64,000 nucleotides of DNA from Candidatus Bathyarchaeota archaeon (GCA_005888735.1 VBBN01000029.1:14564-78563), one strand, 5' to 3'. Positions 15,239-59,940 are shown, counted from the first letter of the stretch. Translations and numbers: made by a program. The notes: a model not told the origin generated them from the letters alone.

Positions 15239-15389
15239 TACAGAGTTAGCTGTTGCAGTAGGCTAACGCCAACAGTTGAATGCTTTATTTCACAGTTACG
15301 TGACGCCGTGATTTCTTGTTTTCTCCAAAACAACACTTTCGTCAATCACTATTAGCTATGTAGCCCCAAGCAGAGGCTGTAGTCACGTC

Positions 15390-16121
15390 TTGAATTTTGA
15401 ACCCTCTGAAGACCTAAGCTTCGTAATTGGATCTTTCTTGGGTGATGGCAGCTTTGTCGAAGACTCGGATTACCATCACCATGTAAAATTGGCTGTTCGA
15501 GACCGCGATTTTGCGGAAGCCTTCAATCTGGCGGTCGGTCATATACTTGGTCGGAAAACAAACAAGATCATAGTAACACACGATTTGGGAAAAGTGTACT
15601 ATGAGTCCAAGTACTCCTCGCGATCCTTGGGATTATTCCTCAGTTCTTCGCTAGGGGAGCTTAGGCCTTTTGCGGATGCTTATCCGGCGGAGTTCTTGCG
15701 TGGCATATTCTCCGCGGATGGCTGCGCGGGCCTTTACGTTGATCATGGTTATCTGAGGCTTCAGATCGTACTTGGCAATTCAGATCCAGAACTGCTGGGA
15801 TTGGTGAAGTCCTTACTTCAATCACATTTCCAGCTACATTCCAATACGTACCTTCGGAAGAGAAGAGGAGCTACATGGAAGAATGGCAGCAAGACCGTCG
15901 TCCTAAGGAAAGACGCGTATGCTCTTCAGATTCAAAGGGTCCATGATGTGCGAGCGTTCGTCGAAAAGATTGGTTTCGTAATCGCTAGAAAACAACACGT
16001 TGCTGAGCAAGCGATCCTTTTGAACCGAACTATAGGCTCTTCACGTGCTGCAGTTGAATGGAGGAAACACTGTTCTCAGAAGAAAGGGGGTCGCTGGCAT
16101 AATTTCGGACCATCTGAATGA
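15390..16121 (+). CDS. double-motif LAGLIDADG homing endonuclease (free-standing)
   Basis: 243 aa with two LAGLIDADG motifs about 95 aa apart (FVIGSFLGDGSF and FLRGIFSADGCAG). It is not in frame with any host protein. TTG start, TGA stop. Confidence 0.85.
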   Translation: MNFEPSEDLSFVIGSFLGDGSFVEDSDYHHHVKLAVRDRDFAEAFNLAVGHILGRKTNKIIVTHDLGKVYYESKYSSRSLGLFLSSSLGELRPFADAYPAEFLRGIFSADGCAGLYVDHGYLRLQIVLGNSDPELLGLVKSLLQSHFQLHSNTYLRKRRGATWKNGSKTVVLRKDAYALQIQRVHDVRAFVEKIGFVIARKQHVAEQAILLNRTIGSSRAAVEWRKHCSQKKGGRWHNFGPSE

Positions 16122-30646: not shown

Positions 30647-30979
30647 GTGAAGGTTCAAAATCCAGAAACCGCTCATCCTGCATTCAAGATGATGGTTCGA
30701 AGAACCTCTGACTACAAAGCTCCGGGCGGAAAACTCGTAAGGGTCCGAATGGAAGAGAAGAACGGTGAGATAGAGACTATTCGAATATCGGGAGACTTCT
30801 TCCTTGTTCCCGAAGACCAGCTTTCAAAGCTGGAAAAGATGCTGATCGGGGCTCCATTGAAAGCAAGAGAGCTCAAGCTATTGGTTGACAGGTTTTTCGT
30901 GGCGACGAGAGTTAAGGGTCTGGGGGTTTCACCGGACGACTTCGTCCAGGCCGTTCTCACAGCAACGGTGGTGGAATAG
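30647..30979 (+). CDS. lplB: lipoate-protein ligase C-terminal domain protein (LplB-like)
   Basis: YKAPGGKLVRVRMEEKNGEIETIRISGDFFLVPED matches the LplA C-terminal accessory domain. GTG at 30647 lies after a GGAAGAAGG RBS. An ATG at 30689 is an alternative start. Confidence 0.65.
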   Translation: MKVQNPETAHPAFKMMVRRTSDYKAPGGKLVRVRMEEKNGEIETIRISGDFFLVPEDQLSKLEKMLIGAPLKARELKLLVDRFFVATRVKGLGVSPDDFVQAVLTATVVE

Positions 30980-31038
30980 GACTGACTGAAACCTGGCGTC
31001 TCGTCGACCTTGAGTACAGGGACGATCCTTTCAAGAAC

Positions 31039-31755
31039 TTGGCCGTCGAGGAGGCTATTCCGCGAACCGTAGGAAAGGGAAAAGCGCCGACCACTGTGCG
31101 CTTCTGGCATAACGCAAACACTGTGGTCCTAGGATGTTTTCAGTCGGCGCAGCTCGAGGTTAACTTTGACGCGTGCAAACAGACAGGGACACAAGTTGTC
31201 CGCCGGTTCACGGGGGGTGGGGCTGTTTACCATGACGCGGGGAACCTGAACTACGCCATATCACTGAGGGAAGGCCATCCTGTCATTCCTAAAGATGATA
31301 ACTTGCAACTTGTCTTCAGAAGGCTCTCGGAGGGAACAGTGAAAGGCCTTCGAGACCTCGGTGTCAGTGCCGAGTTCGAGCCCATCAACGATATTCAAGT
31401 CGACGGAAAGAAGGTCTCGGGGGCAGCTGGAAGTGTCAGGTGGGGAGCGGTGTTCCATCATGGATGTATTCTTGTTTCATCTGACTTGACGATTCTAGGC
31501 AAGGTGTTGAATGTGTCGAGGGCTAAACTGTCAGACAAGCACGTGGCTAGCGTTCAAAAGAGAGTGACAACTGTCCGGGAAGAACTTGCGCGCCACGTCA
31601 CAACCTTTGAGGTGCAGGATGCGATTGTCAAAGGAATCGAGGAATGCTACGGGGTCCACCTTGAGAACGCCGACCTTACTAAGGAAGAGTTGGCTCTGGC
31701 CCAAGAATTGTATGATACGAAATACAGCCGCTCCGAATGGAACCTTAGCCCTTAG
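31039..31755 (+). CDS. lplA: lipoate-protein ligase A catalytic subunit
   Basis: The BPL/LPL catalytic domain is present (VRRFTGGGAVYHDAGNLNYAI, GKKVSGAAGSV). N-terminal homology (TWRLVDLEYRDDPFKNLAVEEA) extends upstream of the first canonical start to about 30982. Confidence 0.85.
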   Translation: MAVEEAIPRTVGKGKAPTTVRFWHNANTVVLGCFQSAQLEVNFDACKQTGTQVVRRFTGGGAVYHDAGNLNYAISLREGHPVIPKDDNLQLVFRRLSEGTVKGLRDLGVSAEFEPINDIQVDGKKVSGAAGSVRWGAVFHHGCILVSSDLTILGKVLNVSRAKLSDKHVASVQKRVTTVREELARHVTTFEVQDAIVKGIEECYGVHLENADLTKEELALAQELYDTKYSRSEWNLSP

Positions 31756-37313: not shown

Positions 37314-37751
37314 TTACCGAGATCTCTTCGCGTTTCGTTCCCTGACCACTCGTTCTACGTGGTCAATTATTGTCTTGAGAGAGGTGCCTGGGCCGAAATT
37401 GCCGGTGATGCCATGTTTCTCCAGGAGAGGTTTGTCTTCGTCAGGAATTATTCCTCCCCCCACTAGAAGAATGTCGCTACCGCCTTTCTCCCGAATTAGT
37501 TTGGCGACTTTTGGGAAGGCTGTCATGTGGGCTCCGTTGAGGAGGCTCATCGCCACGACGTCCACGTCTTCGTCGATTGCCATCTGGGCTACTTGTTCCG
37601 GGGTGGCTAGGAAGCCGGTGTAGATGACTTCCATCCCAGCGTCTCGGAAAGCCCTGCACAGGACTAGCGCCCCTCGGTCGTGGCCGTCAAGCCCAGGCTT
37701 CGCTACTAAAATGCGAATCTTCTTGGAAGGCTTGAGGGGTTTCTTGGCCAT
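37314..37751 (-). CDS. B12-binding small subunit of an acyl-CoA mutase
   Basis: 145 aa. KIRILVAKPGLDGHDRGALVL carries the DxHxxG cobalamin motif, and ...VVAMSLLNGAH is also present. Confidence 0.9.
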   Translation of the reverse strand: MAKKPLKPSKKIRILVAKPGLDGHDRGALVLCRAFRDAGMEVIYTGFLATPEQVAQMAIDEDVDVVAMSLLNGAHMTAFPKVAKLIREKGGSDILLVGGGIIPDEDKPLLEKHGITGNFGPGTSLKTIIDHVERVVRERNAKRSR

Positions 37752-48473: not shown

Positions 48474-49922
48474 TCACACTTCGATTCTTACCCTGTACTC
48501 GCCGTAGGCCTCCCTCAGAGCGTAACTGACTTCGCCTACTGTGCAGCCTACCTGAACTGCTCTCAAGATACTTGGTACGAAGTTTTTTTCTGCTCTGGCA
48601 GACCTTGTCAAGGATCCGAGCGCGTTGTTCACTCGGGTTCTGTTTCTTGATGCTTTGAAATTTCTAAGCTGGCGGATTTGAGTTTTCTCGATCTTGGGGT
48701 CGAGGCGTTGGATTCTAGGCTCAGGACCCGCTCCATCAATGAACCTGTTTACGCCCACGATGATTGTTCGTCCCTCATCGACTGACTTTTGAAACCTGTA
48801 GGCGCTCTCCTGAATCTCCCGGTGGACGAAGCCTGACTCTATTGCCTTCCGTGCTCCACCTAGGCTCTCTACTCTCTCAAGAAGCTCCAGTACATTCCGC
48901 TCAAGGCTCCGTGTCAGGTTCTCAACATAGTAGCTACCGGCCAGGGGGTCAGCGGTCCGAGTCACTCCTGACTCGTAAGCGATGATTTGCTGGGTTCGCA
49001 GTGCAACTCTCACCGAATCCTCTGTCGGCAGGGAGATCGCCTCATCCTTGGAGTTCGTGTGTAAAGACTGGGTCCCGCCCAGGATAGCGGCTAAGGCCTG
49101 AATCGCCACCCTTGTGACATTATTGTCAGGCTGCTGGGCGGTCAGTGTTTCGCCGCTAGTTTGAGTGTGAAAGCGGAGTTTGCAAGATTCCGGATTTCGA
49201 GCATTGAACCGCTCTTTCATCAACCATGCCCATATTTTCCGGGCTGCTCTGAGCTTGGCAATCTCCTCGAGAAAGTCGTTCCGGCAGGCGTAGAAGAATG
49301 AAAGGTGAGGGGCAAAGTGGTCGATCCTTAGCCCCCTTTCCAAGGCCGCTCTTACATACTCGAGAGCGTTTGCGAAGCTGAACGCTAGCTCCTGTATAGC
49401 GTTTGCACCGGACTCTCTGATATGGTAGCCGCTTATGCTGATTGGATGCCACATGGGCATTTTTTCGGCGCAGTATTCTATCAGGTCCACTGCTAATCTC
49501 AATGAAGCCTCGGGGGGATAGATGTATGTGTTCCGGGCAATGTACTCCTTCAGAATATCATTCTGAGTAGTTCCTCGGAGAACTCTCTGTGAGACGCCTT
49601 GTTCCTGAGCCACAGCGACATAAAGTGACAGGAGGATAGGGGCCGTCGCGTTAATTGTCATGCTGGTGCTAACTTTGTCGAGATGGATGCTGTCGAAGAG
49701 CTGTCTCATGTCGTCAAGGCTGCTTATCGCAACGCCTACCCTACCAACTTCTCCGGCCGCGCGTGGATGGTCTGAGTCAAGGCCAAGCTGAGTCGGCAGG
49801 TCGAAGGCGGTGCTGAGGCCAGTCTCTCCATGTGAGATTAGATACTTGAAGCGCTTGTTGGTTTCCCGTCCTGACCCGAAACCCGTGTACTGACGCATCG
49901 TCCACAGTTTTTGTCTATACAT
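48474..49922 (-). CDS. methylmalonyl-CoA mutase-type catalytic (large) subunit
   Basis: 482 aa from the first ATG with WTMRQYTGFGS, KEYIARNTYIYPP and [10 protein letters not shown]. Homologous N-terminal sequence (TTDSGIPSKRVYTQKD...GLPGQYPYARGIYEE) continues upstream in frame to the TAG at 50064-50066. Confidence 0.9.
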   Translation of the reverse strand: MYRQKLWTMRQYTGFGSGRETNKRFKYLISHGETGLSTAFDLPTQLGLDSDHPRAAGEVGRVGVAISSLDDMRQLFDSIHLDKVSTSMTINATAPILLSLYVAVAQEQGVSQRVLRGTTQNDILKEYIARNTYIYPPEASLRLAVDLIEYCAEKMPMWHPISISGYHIRESGANAIQELAFSFANALEYVRAALERGLRIDHFAPHLSFFYACRNDFLEEIAKLRAARKIWAWLMKERFNARNPESCKLRFHTQTSGETLTAQQPDNNVTRVAIQALAAILGGTQSLHTNSKDEAISLPTEDSVRVALRTQQIIAYESGVTRTADPLAGSYYVENLTRSLERNVLELLERVESLGGARKAIESGFVHREIQESAYRFQKSVDEGRTIIVGVNRFIDGAGPEPRIQRLDPKIEKTQIRQLRNFKASRNRTRVNNALGSLTRSARAEKNFVPSILRAVQVGCTVGEVSYALREAYGEYRVRIEV

Positions 49923-50063
49923 CTCCTCGTAGATTCCCCGCGCGTAAGGGTACTGTCCAGGTAACCCGATCGACTTGGCCCACTGGGGCGGGACGTCCTT
50001 TTGAGTGTAGACTCGCTTGGAGGGTATTCCGGAATCGGTTGTTACGGGTTCAGGCGTAGATTT

Positions 50064-51005
50064 CTAGTCTCCTAGCTTGCTGATGGTCTTTACCAGTTTT
50101 GACGCCGCGGTTTCAGGGTCTAATTGGCGCTTGACGACCTGGTTGACGATTCCAGTCCATTCCTTCCGGGTCTTCAACCGGTCCACTGTTTCACGGTGAA
50201 AATCCGAAAACGCTGCTTCAATCAGCTCTTGTTCAATTCTTCCCTGCGCACGTTTCTCTCGCAGGTCCTTGTCGTCGAGGTGTTTGCGAAACCTCTCAAG
50301 TGAGTCGACTACCGCCGGTACTCCAGTTCCTTTCAAAGCAACGGTCTTCAACACCGGCGGCCTCCAGCCGTCCTTCTCCTTCAAGCCGCTGGCAATGTTG
50401 TACATGGTCTTTGAGGGGTTGACGAGGTCCGCCTTATTCACCACGAAGACATCACCGATCTCGCCGAACCCTGCCTTGAACGCTTGAACCTCATCGCCGA
50501 GCTGAGGCATAAGCACGACGACGACTGCATCCACGGCCGACGCCACCTCCACCTCGGCCTGCCCAGCTCCGACGGTTTCTATGATTATGATATCCATCCC
50601 GGCTGCGTCGAGAACTCTGACCGTGTTCCTAGCAGCACGGGCGAGACCTCCAATGTCTCCCCTTGAGGCCATGCTACGGATGAACACGCCCTTTTCCAGG
50701 CTGTGGTCCATCATGCGAATCCTGTCACCGAGCAGTGCGCCTCCGGTGAAGGCGCTTGATGGGTCGATGGCTAGGACCCCGACTCTCTGGGCTCTCTTGC
50801 GATACTCTTCAATCATCTTGTCGACGAGAGTACTCTTGCCCGTCCCGGTGGGACCCGTCACCCCTACCGTGAAGGCCCTACCAGTGCGGGGGTAAATCTC
50901 ATGGATGAGCCGACGACACGCCTCCCCCCCACCCTCAACAACCGTAATGGCCTTGGCAAGGGCGCGATGGTCCCCTCTCGAAACTAGTGTCGATAATCCG
51001 ACCAA
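50064..51005 (-). CDS. meaB: MeaB/ArgK-type G-protein chaperone of B12 mutases
   Basis: 313 aa with P-loop GPTGTGKST, switch regions and NKAD. Confidence 0.9.
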   Translation of the reverse strand: MVGLSTLVSRGDHRALAKAITVVEGGGEACRRLIHEIYPRTGRAFTVGVTGPTGTGKSTLVDKMIEEYRKRAQRVGVLAIDPSSAFTGGALLGDRIRMMDHSLEKGVFIRSMASRGDIGGLARAARNTVRVLDAAGMDIIIIETVGAGQAEVEVASAVDAVVVVLMPQLGDEVQAFKAGFGEIGDVFVVNKADLVNPSKTMYNIASGLKEKDGWRPPVLKTVALKGTGVPAVVDSLERFRKHLDDKDLREKRAQGRIEQELIEAAFSDFHRETVDRLKTRKEWTGIVNQVVKRQLDPETAASKLVKTISKLGD

Positions 51006-51122: not shown

Positions 51123-52871
51123 TTGGCAGCAAGCTATTGGAAGAAAGCTCTTGGAGAAATAGAGACGCACCGACGAGCACCAGCCTCAACTTTCAACCAG
51201 GCACACTTGACGAGGCTGAAGAGAGGAAACAAGAGGTGGGCAGAGAAAACGCTCGGAGAGTGGTTGCGCACAAGCCCCGAGACGAGGAAAGAATACCGTA
51301 ACCCGTCAGAAATTCCCCTCCGACGGACATACACTCCCGAGGACATATCCTACTTTGACTACTCCAGCGACGAGGGTTTTCCTGGCGAATACCCGTATGT
51401 CCGGGGTGTCTACCCTACGATGTACAGGGGAAGGCTTTGGACAATGCGCATGTTCTCAGGCTTTGGTACACCTGAAGACACCAACAAGAGACTCCATTAT
51501 CTGCTCGAACACGGCGAGACAGGTCTCAGCATAGCCTTCGACATGCCGACACTGTACGGTTATGACCCCGACCATCCTCGTGCAGAGGGCGAGGTCGGAC
51601 GTTGTGGCGTCTCAGTCGGCTCGTTGAAAGATATGGAGATTATTCTCGAAGGAATTCCGCTCGACAAAGTCAGCACGAGCATGACCATCAACGCGCCAGC
51701 CTCCGTGTTAACCGCGATGTACGTGGGCGTGGCTGAGCGGCATGGTGTCAAGGCGAAAGACCTCAGGGGAACGGTGCAAGCGGACATTCTCAAAGAGTAC
51801 ATCGCCCAGAAAGAATGGGCGTTTCCACCTGAAGCACACTTGCGAATCATCCGGGACATGATGGTCTACTGCACCAAGGAGATGCCCCAGTGGAACTACA
51901 TCAGCATAAGCGGCTACCACATCCGTGAGGCAGGCTCGAGCGCGGTCCAAGAGCTGGCATTCACTTTAGCGGACGGTTTTGCGTATGTTGATCTGGGTAT
52001 TGAAGCTGGGTTGAACGTTGATAACTTCGCTCCCCGTCTCAGCTTCTTCTGGAACTGCGGAATGGATTTCTTCGAAGAGGTCGCTAAGTTTCGAGCAGCG
52101 AGGCGAATATGGGCCCGGGTCCTGAAGGAGAAGTACAAGGCGAAAGACCCGCGCTCGCTACTCCTACGGACACATGCTCAGAACTCTGGCGTGTCGCTAA
52201 CCTGGCAACAGCCCCTGAACAACATAGTCCGGACAACTATTGAGGCCCTCGCCACCGTCCTAGGCGGGACTCAGTCTCTGCACACGAATTCCTATGATGA
52301 AGCCTGGGCTTTGCCCTCAGAGAAGGCTGCGACGGTAGCCTTGAGGACGCAGCAGGTAATAGCCGAGGAGACAGGCGTCACAGACGTGATCGACCCGCTA
52401 GCAGGGTCCTACTATCTAGAATGGCTAACGGATGAGATGGAACAGAGAGCGTTCGAGTATTTCGACAAGATAGAACAGGCGGGAGGCCTGCTGGAGGCGA
52501 TCAAGACCGGGTTCATTCAGCGCGAAATAGCCGAGACAGCCTATCGTTACCAGCAAGAGATGGAAAAAGGAGAACGCGTCGTGGTTGGAGTCAACAAGTA
52601 TCACGTTGAGGAGAAGATGCCAATTGATACGTTGAAGATCAATCATGAAGCACAACGCCTGCAGGTCGACAGGATCAACAAAGTCCGCCAGACCAGGGAT
52701 AACGGGAAGGTTCAGAGGTCTCTAGAGGAGCTCCGGAAGATCTTCGAGGACCCGAAGGCGAACGCCATGTACCCAATGATAAGAGCGGTCAAGGCATATG
52801 CCACACTGGGCGAGATAATGGACGTGGGCCGCAAGGTCTTCGGAGACTACAAAGAACCGCCCATCCTATAG
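51123..52871 (+). CDS. acyl-CoA mutase catalytic (large) subunit with isobutyryl-CoA-mutase-type specificity residues
   Basis: 582 aa with [11 protein letters not shown] and [13 protein letters not shown]. These carry Phe and Gln where MCM has Tyr and Arg. TTG start. Confidence 0.85.
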
Positions 52872-57841: not shown

Positions 57842-58300
57842 CTATTGGACTAGATTTGTCCCCGCAGGTGCGGGTGTGATGGAGGCAGACTTGGATGTTC
57901 GAGAGGCCATCACCGTGATCAATGTGGCTAGGCACACGAAGAGTACGTAGACTGGGAGTAGAAAGTAGAGGAACCCGTAGAGAAAGATTGAGCCGTAGAA
58001 GAGGACGAGTCCTCCGATAACTGGGAATGAAATATGAGTGTGAAGCATTCGGTTAACCTCTACCCAGATTGACTTGTCTTTTGCTATAAGACCTGCGAGC
58101 CCGAAGTAGGGGCCCAGAATCATTCCTGCTACAGCCATGACGTTCAGTATGAGCCCGCCAGGGAACAGGAAACTGACTAAACTTCCTCCGCCGTAGGGAT
58201 AATTACCGTAAGGCGAGAACAACGATGGAATTAATAGGTAAGCCGCGCTCGCCACAACGATGAGATACGAAATCGGAACGACTCTTCCCTTCAAGCTCAA
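57842..58300 (-). CDS. hypothetical membrane protein
   Basis: 152 aa with four TM segments. Confidence 0.45.
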   Translation of the reverse strand: MSLKGRVVPISYLIVVASAAYLLIPSLFSPYGNYPYGGGSLVSFLFPGGLILNVMAVAGMILGPYFGLAGLIAKDKSIWVEVNRMLHTHISFPVIGGLVLFYGSIFLYGFLYFLLPVYVLFVCLATLITVMASRTSKSASITPAPAGTNLVQ

Positions 58301-58338
58301 TGATTGTGTGAGCTTGGAAGATAAAGGGATACAGTAGC

Positions 58339-59259
58339 TCAGCGACTCATCAATCGTCTAAGAAAAACCTGTTTGAAAGCCGCGGCTTTTGCATCCTTAC
58401 AGACTGCGATCCTCTGACCCTGTAGCTCCTTGGATGGCCGGTCTCTCCTATCACTGACTGTCATACCCGTCGTGTACTCGCCCTTTGTCTCCACATTGAC
58501 ATGATAGTCCTGGAACTTGAACAGGGAAGGTCTCACTTTCATGGCAATAGCCATTGGATCATGCAGAGCGAATCGTTTCTCTCTTCCCATGGCCTTTGCC
58601 AGAATTTTGGCGGCGAATTGGGCATGGTCGGTCTCACTCCTCTTGATTGTAGCATATTCCCTCGGTGATAGTTGAGCGCCAGGAGTCATCGTTACATCGA
58701 GGCCGACGCATTTCAGTGACACTCCCGATTCGAACACTATTTTGGCCGCTTCCGGGTCTGAGTAGATGTTGAACTCTGCGGCAGGCGTCTCGTTCCCAAC
58801 GCCGTACTCTGTTAGACCGTAAGCTCCGCCCATTATCACTACATCGTCTAACCTTCTTACAATATCAGATTCTTCGGTGAAGACAGCTGCAATGTTCGTT
58901 AGAGGTCCGGTGGCAACAATGCTCAGCCTTCGGCGACCGGCCCCCTGGGACTCTTGCTTGATGAGGGACAGCGCGCTCTCAGCACGGGGTCTCAAGCTTG
59001 GACTAGGGAGCTCAGAGTCTCCCAGTCCATCCGCGCCGTGAAAGTCCATAGCCCGTACCGGGTCTCGCACCAACGGATTCGCTAGACCTCTAGCGACCCA
59101 GACATCCTTTCTTTCAAGAAGTTCGACGACTCTCAGCGCGTTCATCGCGGCTTGTTCAACAGGGACGTTTCCCGAGACAGCTGTGATTCCAGCGACATCC
59201 AATTCCGGCGACCTAAGGGCGAGGATCAGCGCTAGCGCGTCGTCTATCCCACCGTCCAT
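58339..59259 (-). CDS. nucleoside hydrolase (IU-NH family)
   Basis: 306 aa from the first ATG. The N-terminal Ca-binding motif reads IIDMDGGIDDA, so its first Asp lies upstream of that ATG. The frame is open up to the TAG at 59302-59304. Confidence 0.85.
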   Translation of the reverse strand: MDGGIDDALALILALRSPELDVAGITAVSGNVPVEQAAMNALRVVELLERKDVWVARGLANPLVRDPVRAMDFHGADGLGDSELPSPSLRPRAESALSLIKQESQGAGRRRLSIVATGPLTNIAAVFTEESDIVRRLDDVVIMGGAYGLTEYGVGNETPAAEFNIYSDPEAAKIVFESGVSLKCVGLDVTMTPGAQLSPREYATIKRSETDHAQFAAKILAKAMGREKRFALHDPMAIAMKVRPSLFKFQDYHVNVETKGEYTTGMTVSDRRDRPSKELQGQRIAVCKDAKAAAFKQVFLRRLMSR

Positions 59260-59301
59260 GTCGATAATGACCCGGGCGGGCCGCTTCGACCCGAAACGCC
59301 T

Positions 59302-59940
59302 CTAGAACAGTTTCACAATCTTATTGGCCGGAAGAATGTCAGCCAGGTACCAGAACTTGAGATACTGGAGACCTGTTCGGTATTGTAGTTCTGTGAACGA
59401 GTTAACGGCATCCTCGGCAATAATAGTCTCGTATCCTCGGAAAAACGCATCGGCGGTCGTGTGTCTTACACAGCAGTCCGTGTGCAAGCCGGACAGAACT
59501 AAGGTGTTGGCGCCCTTTCCATCGTATGCCCTCTTCAACTCGCGTTCAAGCCTTGTATTGAAGAAACTGCTGTAAGTTGTCTTTGGGATCTGCAAGTCCT
59601 TCTTGCGGGGGCGAAGTTCTGTGATTACACGCGCGCCCTTGGACCCGCGCATCGCGTGTTTTCCCCAGCGGTAGATCTCAAAGTCCTTCCGTGTATGTGA
59701 GTCGTTCGGGTAGAGCACTGGAACCCCGGAGCTTCTTGCCTTGTCCGCCAGATCCCCCGTCCGCGGAATCATTGGCACAGCCCTGTCACACTTGATTTTT
59801 CCATAGACGAAATCGTTCAACATGTCTACGACAAGCACTGCGTACCTGCGATCCTTGTTGTAGACGTGCGGAGCAACCGAACCGGCGGGGTCATAGACTG
59901 CAACGTTTTCCGCCGAGCCTTGACCGTGAACCCGACCCAA
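59302..59940 (-). CDS. isochorismatase-family cysteine hydrolase (nicotinamidase-like)
   Basis: 212 aa with catalytic D/K/C context: VLVVDMLNDF, IPKTTYSSF and GLHTDCCV. Confidence 0.8.
   Translation of the reverse strand: MGRVHGQGSAENVAVYDPAGSVAPHVYNKDRRYAVLVVDMLNDFVYGKIKCDRAVPMIPRTGDLADKARSSGVPVLYPNDSHTRKDFEIYRWGKHAMRGSKGARVITELRPRKKDLQIPKTTYSSFFNTRLERELKRAYDGKGANTLVLSGLHTDCCVRHTTADAFFRGYETIIAEDAVNSFTELQYRTGLQYLKFWYLADILPANKIVKLF

Follow-up and report, generated by a model that had tools for sequence, protein, structure and literature searches.

A B12-dependent mutase gene of a Bathyarchaeota archaeon with a probable ACG start codon six nucleotides past the meaB stop

The gene for the large (catalytic) subunit of an MCM-type acyl-CoA mutase follows meaB on the reverse strand of a 64,000-nucleotide stretch of DNA from Candidatus Bathyarchaeota archaeon (GCA_005888735.1, hereafter the window). 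The mutase is probably translated from an ACG codon at 50055-50057, as a separate gene that is coupled to meaB. This codon occupies the position at which the mutase genes of relatives carry ATG or TTG, and the conserved N-terminus of the protein lies upstream of the first canonical start codon.

The meaB gene (50064..51005, reverse strand) has a TTG start and a TAG stop (50064-50066) and encodes a G-protein chaperone of B12 mutases of 313 aa. Its product matched PF03308 (E=1.8e-86, 290 bits, cut-off 23.1) and, with 319.7 bits against a cut-off of 240.75, also TIGR00750, which makes it a member of the MeaB family. The stop-to-stop ORF of the mutase (48474..50063, reverse strand) is in the same frame as the meaB TAG. 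If started at ACG, the gene extends over 48474..50057, ends with TGA (48474-48476) and codes for 527 aa. The product covers positions 1-512 of the 512 positions of PF01642 (E=2e-214) and scores 742.6 bits against TIGR00641 (cut-off 303.8). Assigned by motif position, the residues contacting the substrate carboxylate are of the Tyr/Arg type (motifs RQY in MRQYTGF and ...YIARN) and are presumably Tyr89 and Arg207 in the numbering of the P. shermanii enzyme. A paralogous mutase large subunit of 582 aa is encoded in divergent orientation (51123..52871, forward strand, TTG start, PF01642). It is 50% identical to the first mutase, features Phe/Gln at the specificity positions (RMF in MRMFSGF and ...YIAQK) and was found at the same place in three related loci (L081, L165 and L167). 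The genome also encodes a separate B12-binding small subunit with a DGHDRG motif (37314..37751, reverse strand; PF02310, E=2.4e-24), about 11 kb from the mutase genes.

The initial annotation had noted that the meaB TAG (50064-50066) shares its frame with the mutase and that no ATG, GTG or TTG follows for 47 codons, with which both the sequence and its translation agree. These codons encode KSTPEPVTTDSGIPSKRVYTQKDVPPQWAKSIGLPGQYPYARGIYEE. The first canonical start of the ORF is an ATG at 49920-49922 (reverse strand), which is codon 48 of the ORF and codon 46 when counted from ACG; it is the choice of the gene callers and yields a product of 482 aa. The Met at this position is internal and invariant in all relatives and corresponds to M99 of human MUT. 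Upstream of it, codons 2-45 of the mutase (49923..50054, reverse strand) form a conserved N-terminal arm with the pattern TDSG...VK..Y..KD...PGxYPYARGIY. Alignment of this segment with the N-terminus of the paralog at 51123, which had been claimed before, was confirmed by BLASTP, starting at residue 9. Position 1 of the Pfam MM_CoA_mutase profile falls on codon 8 of the extension, TIGR00641 likewise aligns from codon 8, and orthologs and solved structures (HcmA 4R3U, human MUT) align with the mutase from residues 5-9. Since profiles and orthologs align upstream of it, a start at the ATG (49922) would indeed delete conserved sequence. The mutase thus shows conserved coding sequence upstream of its first ATG, GTG or TTG, bounded by an in-frame stop, as is characteristic of a gene with a non-canonical start.

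An upstream stop falls in frame in 1 of 3 cases by chance, and 47 codons without a canonical start have a chance probability of about 0.1 (a rough estimate). The in-frame TAG and the 47-codon absence of a canonical start are unremarkable by themselves; it is the comparison across loci that exceeds chance. A canonical start upstream of the N-terminal segment was present in 158 of the 163 evaluable mutase loci of bacteria and archaea. Four of the five exceptions belong to the window's own clade. The fifth (L022) has an ATG inside a short N-terminus and was flagged by the cut-off alone.

The relatives' ATG or TTG occurs at one homologous position, of which the ACG is the positional ortholog. The junction reads TAG AAA YCY ACG CCT GA in the window and in four related assemblies (L084, L165, L166 and L081), and TAG AAA CCC ATG CCC GA in the closest ATG-bearing relatives, L082 and L083 (87% protein identity). 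In the DNA alignment and the junction views, the ACG differs from the ATG of these nearest relatives by one T/C change. L084, L165 and L166 are three independent assemblies with 99.6% DNA identity to the window, whereas L081 represents a second lineage at about 85% DNA identity; all have the same TAG and the same ACG. Both ACG lineages therefore carry an identical substitute codon, which in the window and in L081 is the sole near-cognate codon between the TAG and the TDSG motif. The TAG is reproduced in five assemblies, and the bases at 50064-50066, which the initial annotation had singled out for checking, recur in each of the three further assemblies and in L081. Given this reproduction across independent assemblies and L081, neither the meaB TAG nor the mutase ACG is a sequencing error. 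A peptide-pattern scan of genome contigs gave a best match of 61% identity among the matches listed, while at least five useful relatives at 76-80% were among the matches listed in a metagenome scan. The DNA pattern of the junction was not found in the genome-contig scan of species representatives, from which it follows that the window's clade is not among them.

The distance from the meaB stop to the mutase start is +6 nt in the window (to ACG) and -8, -4, +3 or +6 nt in the relatives. Distances of 3-6 nt or overlaps of 4 or 8 nt are the usual layout of termination-reinitiation pairs. The last MeaB residue is the same in the orthologs and is followed by TAG, TGA (L167, L168, L169 and L088) or TAA (L086); in L085 and L089 the meaB stop overlaps the mutase start out of frame. 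The spacer between stop and proposed start, AAA TCT in the window (6 nt, 50058..50063, reverse strand), is short and variable, being AAA CCC, AGA CGG, CCA, GAT, GCA or an overlap in relatives. We conclude that the in-frame position of the meaB TAG is incidental. The two genes are co-directional and lie within the range of -8 to +10 nt that a study on Haloferax volcanii took as predictive of coupling; the same study gives a loss of coupling at about 22 nt and an enrichment of coupled pairs for subunits of complexes (PMC10666635). MeaB/MMAA does form a complex with the mutase, of which a structure (PDB 8GJU) was among the structure matches. A Shine-Dalgarno-like AGGAG (50069..50073, reverse strand) is located within the final meaB codons, 11 nt 5' of the ACG, and presumably acts as Shine-Dalgarno sequence for the mutase. 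It is identical in L081 and L082, and GGAG, GGGG or GAGG is found 8-10 nt before the ATG or TTG in relatives. The 11-nt spacing between AGGAG and ACG is rather long.

Reinitiation at a non-canonical codon had been one of three explanations offered initially, and it is the one that fits best, the ACG being located where orthologs have ATG or TTG, 6 nt past the stop. Accordingly worded as a mechanism, meaB and the mutase large-subunit gene would be separate genes with coupled translation. The ancestor of this small Bathyarchaeia clade would have had an ATG as mutase start 6 nt past the meaB stop, and this ATG would have become ACG in the lineage of the window. Ribosomes terminating at the meaB TAG would restart at the near-cognate ACG, aided by the AGGAG and most likely by means of initiator Met-tRNA, so that the full-length mutase of 527 aa with its native N-terminus would still be produced, with a yield that is probably below that from ATG. 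We infer that ACG would be the codon actually used, that the first residue would be Met and that translation would depend on the coupling to meaB, with reduced output. ACG is not on the start list of NCBI genetic code 11, and no description of an ACG start in archaea was found in a full-text literature search. In an E. coli reporter, ACG initiates with Met and belongs to a class giving just 0.1-1% of the AUG level (bioRxiv 10.1101/063800). In ribosome profiling of H. volcanii, near-cognate codons made up about 30% of the putative alternative initiation sites (PMC7261190).

The body of the mutase gene is under strong purifying selection. Its dN/dS ratio is 0.067 between the two ACG lineages (dS about 0.8) and 0.075-0.092 in comparison to the ATG lineage, with 0.07-0.09 for the whole gene, and neither ACG lineage has a frameshift or stop across the 1.6 kb. 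Substitutions in the N-terminal 44 codons follow the pattern of coding sequence. These codons contain 24 nucleotide differences and 9 amino acid changes between the window and L081; random placement of 24 differences gives 9 or fewer amino acid changes with P = 5e-4, and retention of all family-invariant residues with P = 2e-4. The family-invariant residues of the N-terminal arm are present in the window at 16 of 17 positions and in L081 at 17 of 17; the change in the window is V13S, at a family-invariant Val. In the stretch from ACG to an ATA codon at 50025-50027, five of the six differences between the window and L081 fall on third codon positions and TDSG is kept, indicating that translation begins upstream of the ATA. 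The dN/dS ratio of the N-terminal segment is 0.37 between the window and L081, where the order of divergence with L082 is flat by quartets. In a hand count for this segment, non-synonymous changes on the window's own branch were roughly as numerous as synonymous ones. A neighbour-joining tree grouped the window with L081 at 75% bootstrap, and the quartet site counts were about equal for the three topologies, so that a single origin of the ATG-to-ACG change is not claimed. The ACG may have arisen twice, and recently. If it is recent, the N-terminal conservation is in large part older than the change and tells less about present translation. Third positions agree in 15 of 15 codons at the 3' end of meaB; this synonymous-site conservation was discarded as a distinctive signal, because other 15-codon windows in both genes are equal to it.

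Two more genes of the window, each located just past an upstream gene, are likewise without a canonical start. The gene for the catalytic subunit of lipoate-protein ligase (lplA, 30982..31755, forward strand) has CTG (30982-30984) where its orthologs start, and the TAG of the upstream Lip_prot_lig_C gene lies 2 nt ahead of this CTG. The orthologs, of 255-257 aa, begin with M/V/L-(T)ETWRL, and the sister genome L171 has a TTG overlapping a TGA. The first canonical start of lplA, TTG at 31039, removes 19 conserved residues. A nucleoside hydrolase gene (58339..59301, reverse strand) follows the TAG (59302-59304) of an isochorismatase-family gene; the first Asp of its DxDxxxDD motif is upstream of the first ATG (59257-59259), and the match to PF01156 opens, with profile position 1, 4 codons ahead of this ATG. 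A TCG at 59287-59289 is invariant in those of the nine compared Bathyarchaeia relatives that have no canonical start, and the anomaly recurs across Bathyarchaeia. An ORF at 57842..58357, whose CTGA overlaps with the upstream stop, was dropped, as it has no Pfam match and no homolog in the loci of the relatives. The lplA and hydrolase cases hint at relaxed start-codon rules at coupled junctions. Tentatively, ribosomes of this soil Bathyarchaeia clade that have just terminated might need no NUG codon to resume on the next gene, with ACG, CUG and possibly UCG as restart codons, read either directly under a relaxed check or after C-to-U editing; we regard this wider proposal as conceivable, but rather doubtful. 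If it is true, annotation would wrongly give truncated N-termini to a share of the genes inside operons of these genomes.

The initial annotation had also proposed partial read-through of the meaB TAG to give a MeaB-mutase fusion; a suppressor tRNA, pyrrolysine or a leaky context could bring it about. This would explain the loss of the ATG, and the TAG is in frame with just three sense codons (AAA TCT ACG) before the conserved sequence. That a G-protein can work in one chain with a mutase barrel is known from IcmF, and the hydrolase of the window is likewise located after an in-frame TAG. However, the TGA, TAA or out-of-frame overlap at the homologous codon in relatives, always with an independent start, indicates that the ancestral products were separate, and UAG is not conserved there. 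TAG is the main stop of the window (24 of 45 Pfam-supported ORFs), hence neither rare nor avoided, and a genome-wide reassignment of TAG was rejected on the same count. Within the 64 kb, a check for suppressor tRNA and pyl genes gave no tRNA gene (ARAGORN), no RNA family (Rfam) and no Pyl-related Pfam match among about 45 ORFs. No stable RNA structure was detected past the stop (z = 0.2-0.7); folding the junctions of the window, L081 and L082 gave structures no more stable than those of shuffled sequence, which speaks against a stimulator of read-through or frameshifting. The G domain and the mutase barrel do not form an uninterrupted ORF, the TAG being located between them. The relatives have separate genes with their own starts. 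No fused MeaB-mutase homolog was found among the best 120 matches of each of two word-index searches, and an exhaustive HMMER search with the read-through product gave no MeaB-to-mutase fusion among its best 150 matches. The long HMMER matches, considered as a fusion precedent, turned out by Pfam to be tandem mutase and B12 domains or mutase-B12-MeaB proteins. At the hydrolase junction, those relatives that have 13-nt spacers are out of frame, so read-through is not a general solution. We consider read-through quite improbable. The further suggestion, in which the stop of a truly fused gene is a recent point mutation or an error, is refuted, as the TAG is ancestral to the clade and was reproduced in independent assemblies.

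A start further downstream, at the ATA (50025-50027, 517 aa) or the ATG (49920-49922, 482 aa), with the upstream part being a relic or functional as RNA only, is unlikely. Genetic code 11 does admit ATA as an alternative start. Public records use the ATA (P0241, 517 aa, beginning with MPSKRVYTQKD), the ATG (482 aa) or a later ATG (474 aa; OLE74980.1, OLD02899.1). In E. coli, expression from AUA exceeded that of the class containing ACG (bioRxiv 10.1101/063800), and with a recent ACG the upstream conservation could be inherited. Against this, the ATA and the ATG are the conserved internal Ile (of DSGIP) and Met of relatives that have a canonical start upstream. They lie 36 and 141 nt from the meaB stop, beyond the reach of roughly 20 nt measured for reinitiation in H. 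volcanii (PMC10666635), and neither has a Shine-Dalgarno-like motif at usable distance. The codon-periodic differences and the preserved TDSG upstream of the ATA also argue against a start there. The ATG would in addition remove the PGxYPYxRG segment, the Pro of which corresponds to P86 of human MUT (residue mapping from motifs and alignment); the P86L variant is disease-causing, at a position fully buried at the dimer interface, and has a Tm shift of -8.7 °C (PMC4441004). That the start was simply lost, the mutase being silent or nearly so and becoming a pseudogene while the neighbouring paralog covers the need, is highly improbable. The paralog does adjoin, the window branch slightly exceeds those of L081 and L082 in length, and V13S affects a family-invariant residue, but the intact 1.6 kb of both ACG lineages and a dN/dS ratio as low as in the comparisons with the ATG lineage point to a maintained gene. 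Moreover, with Phe/Gln instead of Tyr/Arg at the specificity positions the paralog is an unlikely substitute, and four assemblies of the species, as well as a second lineage, share the fixed ACG. We give equally little credence to C-to-U editing of the mRNA at the start codon (ACG to AUG) followed by canonical translation. This single type of change would make all three anomalies of the window canonical (ACG to AUG, CUG to UUG and UCG to UUG), and the creation of start codons by ACG-to-AUG editing is established for chloroplasts. However, we know of no mRNA C-to-U editing in archaea, and the hydrolase TCG was picked after the fact, for its invariance. In eukaryote-type initiation, CTG and ACG rank with the better near-cognate codons, and T-to-C mutations are common. 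The general annotation of the window gave no pointer to an editing enzyme.

If ACG is the true start, the mutase would be a natural archaeal gene with a codon outside the accepted prokaryotic start set, kept while both carrier lineages diverged to a dS of about 0.8. Together with lplA and the hydrolase, it suggests that restart in tightly coupled archaeal operons may tolerate codons that fresh initiation does not. This would bear on start-codon checking by the eukaryote-like initiation factors of archaea and on expression ratios within complexes such as that of G-protein chaperone and mutase. It has a bearing on gene calling as well, since pipelines give the mutase three N-termini (474, 482 and 517 aa), none of which is the likely one. 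The analysis also removes the unsupported reading of a new MeaB-mutase fusion via UAG read-through.

Compared to known systems, the locus resembles IcmF in having a MeaB-like domain before a mutase barrel. The correspondence in domain order pointed out initially is correct, with no bearing on the present question: both proteins of the window match the IcmF profile NF045497 only partially (119 and 372 bits, cut-off 1500), which places them outside the IcmF-like group. IcmF is a single chain, whereas in the window a stop separates the genes, an N-terminal B12 domain and an interdomain linker are missing, and the relatives are unfused. With pyrrolysine and other UAG recoding it shares an in-frame UAG followed by conserved coding sequence, but here UAG is the predominant stop and the 64 kb showed no Pyl machinery. 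The editing of plant organelles likewise concerns a genomic ACG in a conserved gene where relatives have ATG; comparable machinery is not known in archaea. ATT, ATA, ATC and CTG are listed as starts in genetic code 11. In the housekeeping-type genes infC (AUU/AUA) and dnaA (ATC) and rpsL (CTG) of Deinococcus, a conserved N-terminus upstream of the first ATG, GTG or TTG was likewise found by ortholog alignment, and related genomes conserve the odd codon (PMC2830850). Those starts are first- or third-position changes, while here the middle base is affected, in an archaeon with eukaryote-like initiation factors and with a start proposed from the sequence. ACG-initiated translation occurs in eukaryotes and their viruses. 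The codon is the same there and in E. coli, and reading by initiator Met-tRNA at reduced efficiency would be expected here too; the eukaryotic cases depend on scanning and Kozak context and the E. coli case is an artificial reporter, whereas the mutase start would be native, archaeal, operon-internal, preceded by a Shine-Dalgarno-like motif and located just past a stop. The closest parallel in layout is termination-reinitiation in archaea and bacteria (Huber et al. 2019, PMC6728339; 2023, PMC10666635), with a co-directional pair, interacting proteins, a short distance (+6 nt here) and a Shine-Dalgarno-like motif inside the upstream gene end. The pairs of these two studies use ATG or GTG in overlaps such as ATGA and TGATG, and a non-NTG restart codon would be the new element proposed here.

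On the reverse strand of the window, meaB (50064..51005; PF03308, TIGR00750) ends with a TAG stop codon (50064-50066), which is in the same phase as the reading frame of an MCM-type mutase large subunit (mutase 1) extending to a TGA at 48474-48476. As described in the initial annotation, the first ATG, GTG or TTG of mutase 1 is the ATG at 49920-49922, 47 codons past the meaB stop. Judged from alignments, these codons truly encode mutase. The Pfam and TIGRFAM profiles for mutases align from codon 8 of the segment, a paralog at 51123 matches mutase 1 from residue 9, and orthologs from many phyla as well as the solved structures of HcmA and human MUT align from residues 5-9. The concern that a start at the ATG deletes conserved sequence is well founded, as the product would lack the PGxYPYxRG segment. 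When mapped from the LPG and MY motifs of the alignment, the proline of this segment appears to correspond to P86 of human MUT. P86 is fully buried at the dimer interface, and P86L, a disease allele, causes an 8.7 °C drop in melting temperature (PMC4441004).

The proposed start codon is an ACG at 50055-50057 (reverse strand), located 6 nt past the meaB stop and 11 nt past an AGGAG motif; no other near-cognate codon is present upstream of TDSG. The resulting protein would begin with MPEPVTTDSGIPSK... or TPEPV....

A word-index protein search with the read-through product as query yielded only unfused mutases among the best 120 matches. Three of these are gene calls of 482 aa, two at 99-100% identity (the window's species) and one from a 90% relative. 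The remaining matches have lengths of 515-557 aa, mostly 526-527 aa, and begin with MPDPVTTDSG, MTDPVTTDSG or MKDEVATDSG; most orthologs carry the segment upstream of the equivalent of Met-49922, whose absence from them the initial annotation had named as a refuting result. The 527 aa database protein P0004 resembles the 80% relatives in its N-terminal three quarters and matches the window's protein exactly over its last ~115 residues; a chimera formed in assembly is the probable explanation.

Junction DNA of relatives was fetched and aligned to the window. The junction reads ...TAG AAA TCT ACG CCT GAA... in the window and in three further assemblies of the same species (L084, L165 and L166; 99.6% DNA identity), ...TAG AAA CCC ACG CCT GAC... 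in a second ACG lineage (L081, GCA_030157165.1; ~85% DNA identity) and ...GGA GAC TAG AAA CCC ATG CCC GAC... in the nearest ATG-bearing relatives (L082 and L083, 87% protein identity). The mutase anomaly therefore consists of a T-to-C change at the second base of the start codon. More distantly related Bathyarchaeia feature TGA AGA CGG ATG (L167, L168), TGA CCA TTG (L169, L170), TAA GAT TTG (L086), TGA GCA ATG (L088), a TTGA overlap (L085) or an 8-nt overlap (L089). Since identity and phase of the meaB stop differ across these junctions and the position of the mutase start is constant, the in-frame TAG represents one way, among several equivalent ones, in which this tightly coupled pair is arranged. 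SD-like motifs (GGAG, GGGG or GAGG) were found 8-10 nt upstream of the relatives' mutase starts. The conserved segment is preceded by a canonical start in 158 of 163 evaluable mutase loci (92 ATG, 38 GTG and 28 TTG); a genuine lack is limited to the ACG clade. In a soil mutase locus of 61% identity (L116, Ga0299907_10028495), an in-frame stop lies 16 codons before PGxxP with no canonical start between them; a frameshift, a sequence error or a further unusual start could account for this.

The gene body of mutase 1 is strongly constrained, with dN/dS values of 0.067 (dS 0.83) between the window and L081, both with ACG, 0.075 (dS 0.72) between L081 and the ATG-bearing L082, and 0.092 (dS 0.70) between the window and L082. 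For the N-terminal 44 codons dN/dS is 0.37, and the same segment yields 0.10-0.47 among canonical-start relatives. Of 17 residues invariant in seven canonical-start relatives, L081 keeps all and the window 16. When the 24 nucleotide differences in these codons were placed randomly, nine or fewer amino-acid changes resulted in 0.05% of trials, and the invariant residues were all kept in 0.02%. Between the ACG and a downstream ATA, five of six differences are at third codon positions. The branching of the window, L081 and L082 reached 75% in neighbour joining with flat quartet counts; ACG may have arisen once or twice, or may have reverted in L082. If it is recent and arose twice, part of the N-terminal conservation is older than ACG, but even then ACG would be a tolerated state, as two lineages converged on the same codon.

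At third positions, the window and L081 show 100% identity in the last 13 codons of meaB (50067-50105, reverse strand) and in mutase codons 12-26 (mean 67%, SD 14%). As other 15-codon windows reach the same identity, RNA-level constraint near the initiation region is only weakly hinted at. Within the 99% identical contig of L084, amino-acid changes between its protein P0002 and the window cluster at ~2130-2150 (AISRTREHS versus AISLPTEDS), with an apparent dN/dS >2; this seems to be a local error in the assembly or consensus.

Among ~45 Pfam-matched ORFs of the window, the Pfam domain begins before the first canonical start in only three, namely mutase 1, lplA and a nucleoside hydrolase gene. 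The gene lplA for the catalytic subunit of lipoate-protein ligase (within 30916-31755, forward strand) has a CTG (30982-30984) at the start position of its orthologs, which are 255-257 aa long with the N-terminus M/V/L-(T)ETWRLVD. The first canonical start, TTG at 31039, would cut off 19 residues that are conserved. The Lip_prot_lig_C gene upstream ends with TAG at 30977-30979, 2 nt before the CTG; among the loci compared (L171, 1501-2274, and L172), a sister genome has a TTG overlapping TGA (TTGA).

The nucleoside hydrolase gene (58339..59301, reverse strand) abuts the TAG of an isochorismatase-family gene (to 59304), and the first Asp of the catalytic DxDxxxDD motif lies upstream of the first ATG. 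This junction was compared in nine Bathyarchaeia relatives (L173-L181, around position 1440-1560). As in the window, eight of them have no canonical start upstream of DxDxxxDD, and the stop of the upstream gene is TAG in the window and all nine. The spacer from TAG to TCG is 12 nt in the window and 12, 13 or 15 nt in these eight relatives (18 nt in L179). Some of these lengths cannot be divided by three, so the spacer does not code for protein and rules out a fusion in several lineages. It is followed by TCG (AAG or AGA) (AGR or CGG) CCC, and the SKRPxRVIID segment is clearly coding, as CGG, AGG and AGA replace one another at its Arg positions. The TCG is invariant in the eight relatives, 6-7 nt downstream of an AGGG motif; L179 alone has a canonical start (GTG), with CCG replacing TCG. 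An ORF for a predicted membrane protein (57842-58357, reverse strand) opens shortly ahead of the hydrolase stop, has an overlap of stop/start type (CTGA; CTG 58340-58342) and reaches its first canonical start 14 codons later; it had no Pfam match and no homolog 3' of the hydrolase gene in the relatives compared.

The initial annotation had proposed that partial read-through of the meaB TAG yields a MeaB-mutase fusion. We regard this as improbable, given the varying stops and phases of the junction and the use of TAG as main stop in 24 of 45 Pfam-supported ORFs of the window. The 64-kb window contains neither a tRNA gene nor Rfam matches, nor an RNA structure at the junction. Long proteins among the best 150 matches of an exhaustive HMMER search are tandem mutases plus B12 or mutase-B12-MeaB; no MeaB-to-mutase fusion was listed. 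Mutation or sequencing error in a truly fused gene was likewise abandoned, as TAG and ACG recur in L084, L165, L166 and L081 and relatives are unfused. On these sequence comparisons, the junction anomaly is neither fusion nor error.

Translation from the downstream ATA or the first ATG is unlikely, although less so than read-through. The ATA is used in the 517-aa public record P0241, but it clashes with the coding pattern upstream of it and its distance from the meaB stop is unfavourable. Together, public records P0241, P0242, P0243 and P0001 give three N-termini for one mutase gene: 517 aa (ATA), 482 aa (ATG) and 474 aa (a later ATG; GenBank OLE74980.1 and OLD02899.1), none at the position homologous to the orthologs' start. 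Ongoing pseudogenisation of mutase 1 is very improbable, as it clashes with a dN/dS of 0.07. Similarly remote is a start codon restored by C-to-U editing of the mRNA, for which a speculative lead exists in that the odd codons of mutase 1, lplA and the hydrolase gene are each one C-to-U change from a canonical start.

The window is archaeal, encoding Cdc6/Orc1, TFIIE-alpha, aTrm56 and an archaeosine-TGT-type C2/PUA-domain protein, and near protein matches carry the names Candidatus Bathyarchaeia or 'archaeon 13_1_20CM...' (soil MAGs). Contigs analysed here came from samples of grassland soil, for example JGI 3300026296, 3300018431 and 3300026313. A free-standing ORF (15312-16121, forward strand) encodes a LAGLIDADG_3 homing-endonuclease-like domain (PF14528, E=6e-16). 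The specificity positions of mutase 1 match the Tyr/Arg (methylmalonyl-CoA) signature. The paralog (51123-52871, forward strand; 50% identical to mutase 1) has Phe/Gln instead and a 60-residue N-terminal extension ahead of the Pfam domain; it is probably an isobutyryl-CoA-type or related acyl-CoA mutase rather than a second methylmalonyl-CoA mutase. It adjoins meaB divergently, and meaB might serve both mutases. The window's sole B12-binding small subunit (37314-37751, reverse strand; DGHDRG motif, PF02310) is encoded 11 kb from the two large-subunit genes and adjoins NAD-biosynthesis genes (NadA, QRPTase).

Taken together, the best reading and, in our estimation, a reasonably probable one is that meaB and the mutase are translationally coupled and the mutase starts at a non-canonical ACG. 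Ribosomes fresh from finishing meaB would reinitiate at the ACG. Reinitiation at a non-canonical codon had been suggested initially; the ACG indeed occupies the orthologs' ATG/TTG position, and its use is proposed from its distances to the meaB stop and the AGGAG motif together with the literature on coupling and near-cognate codons. The lplA and hydrolase cases make this reading more plausible, as they indicate that this group stably retains genes which directly follow an upstream stop and have no canonical start. According to two studies, termination-reinitiation coupling in Haloferax volcanii as well as Escherichia coli operates across overlaps or very short spacers and is gone at ~20 nt, and coupled pairs are enriched for complex subunits (PMC6728339, PMC10666635). 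The start codons reported to date for archaea are AUG, GUG and UUG (PMC7531240). In ribosome profiling of H. volcanii, near-cognate codons made up ~30% of the putative alternative initiation sites (PMC7261190). An E. coli reporter with an ACG start gave protein with N-terminal Met, the codon class reaching 0.1-1% of the AUG level (bioRxiv 10.1101/063800). The ACG start would be a fresh variant of two known phenomena, non-canonical starts and termination-reinitiation.
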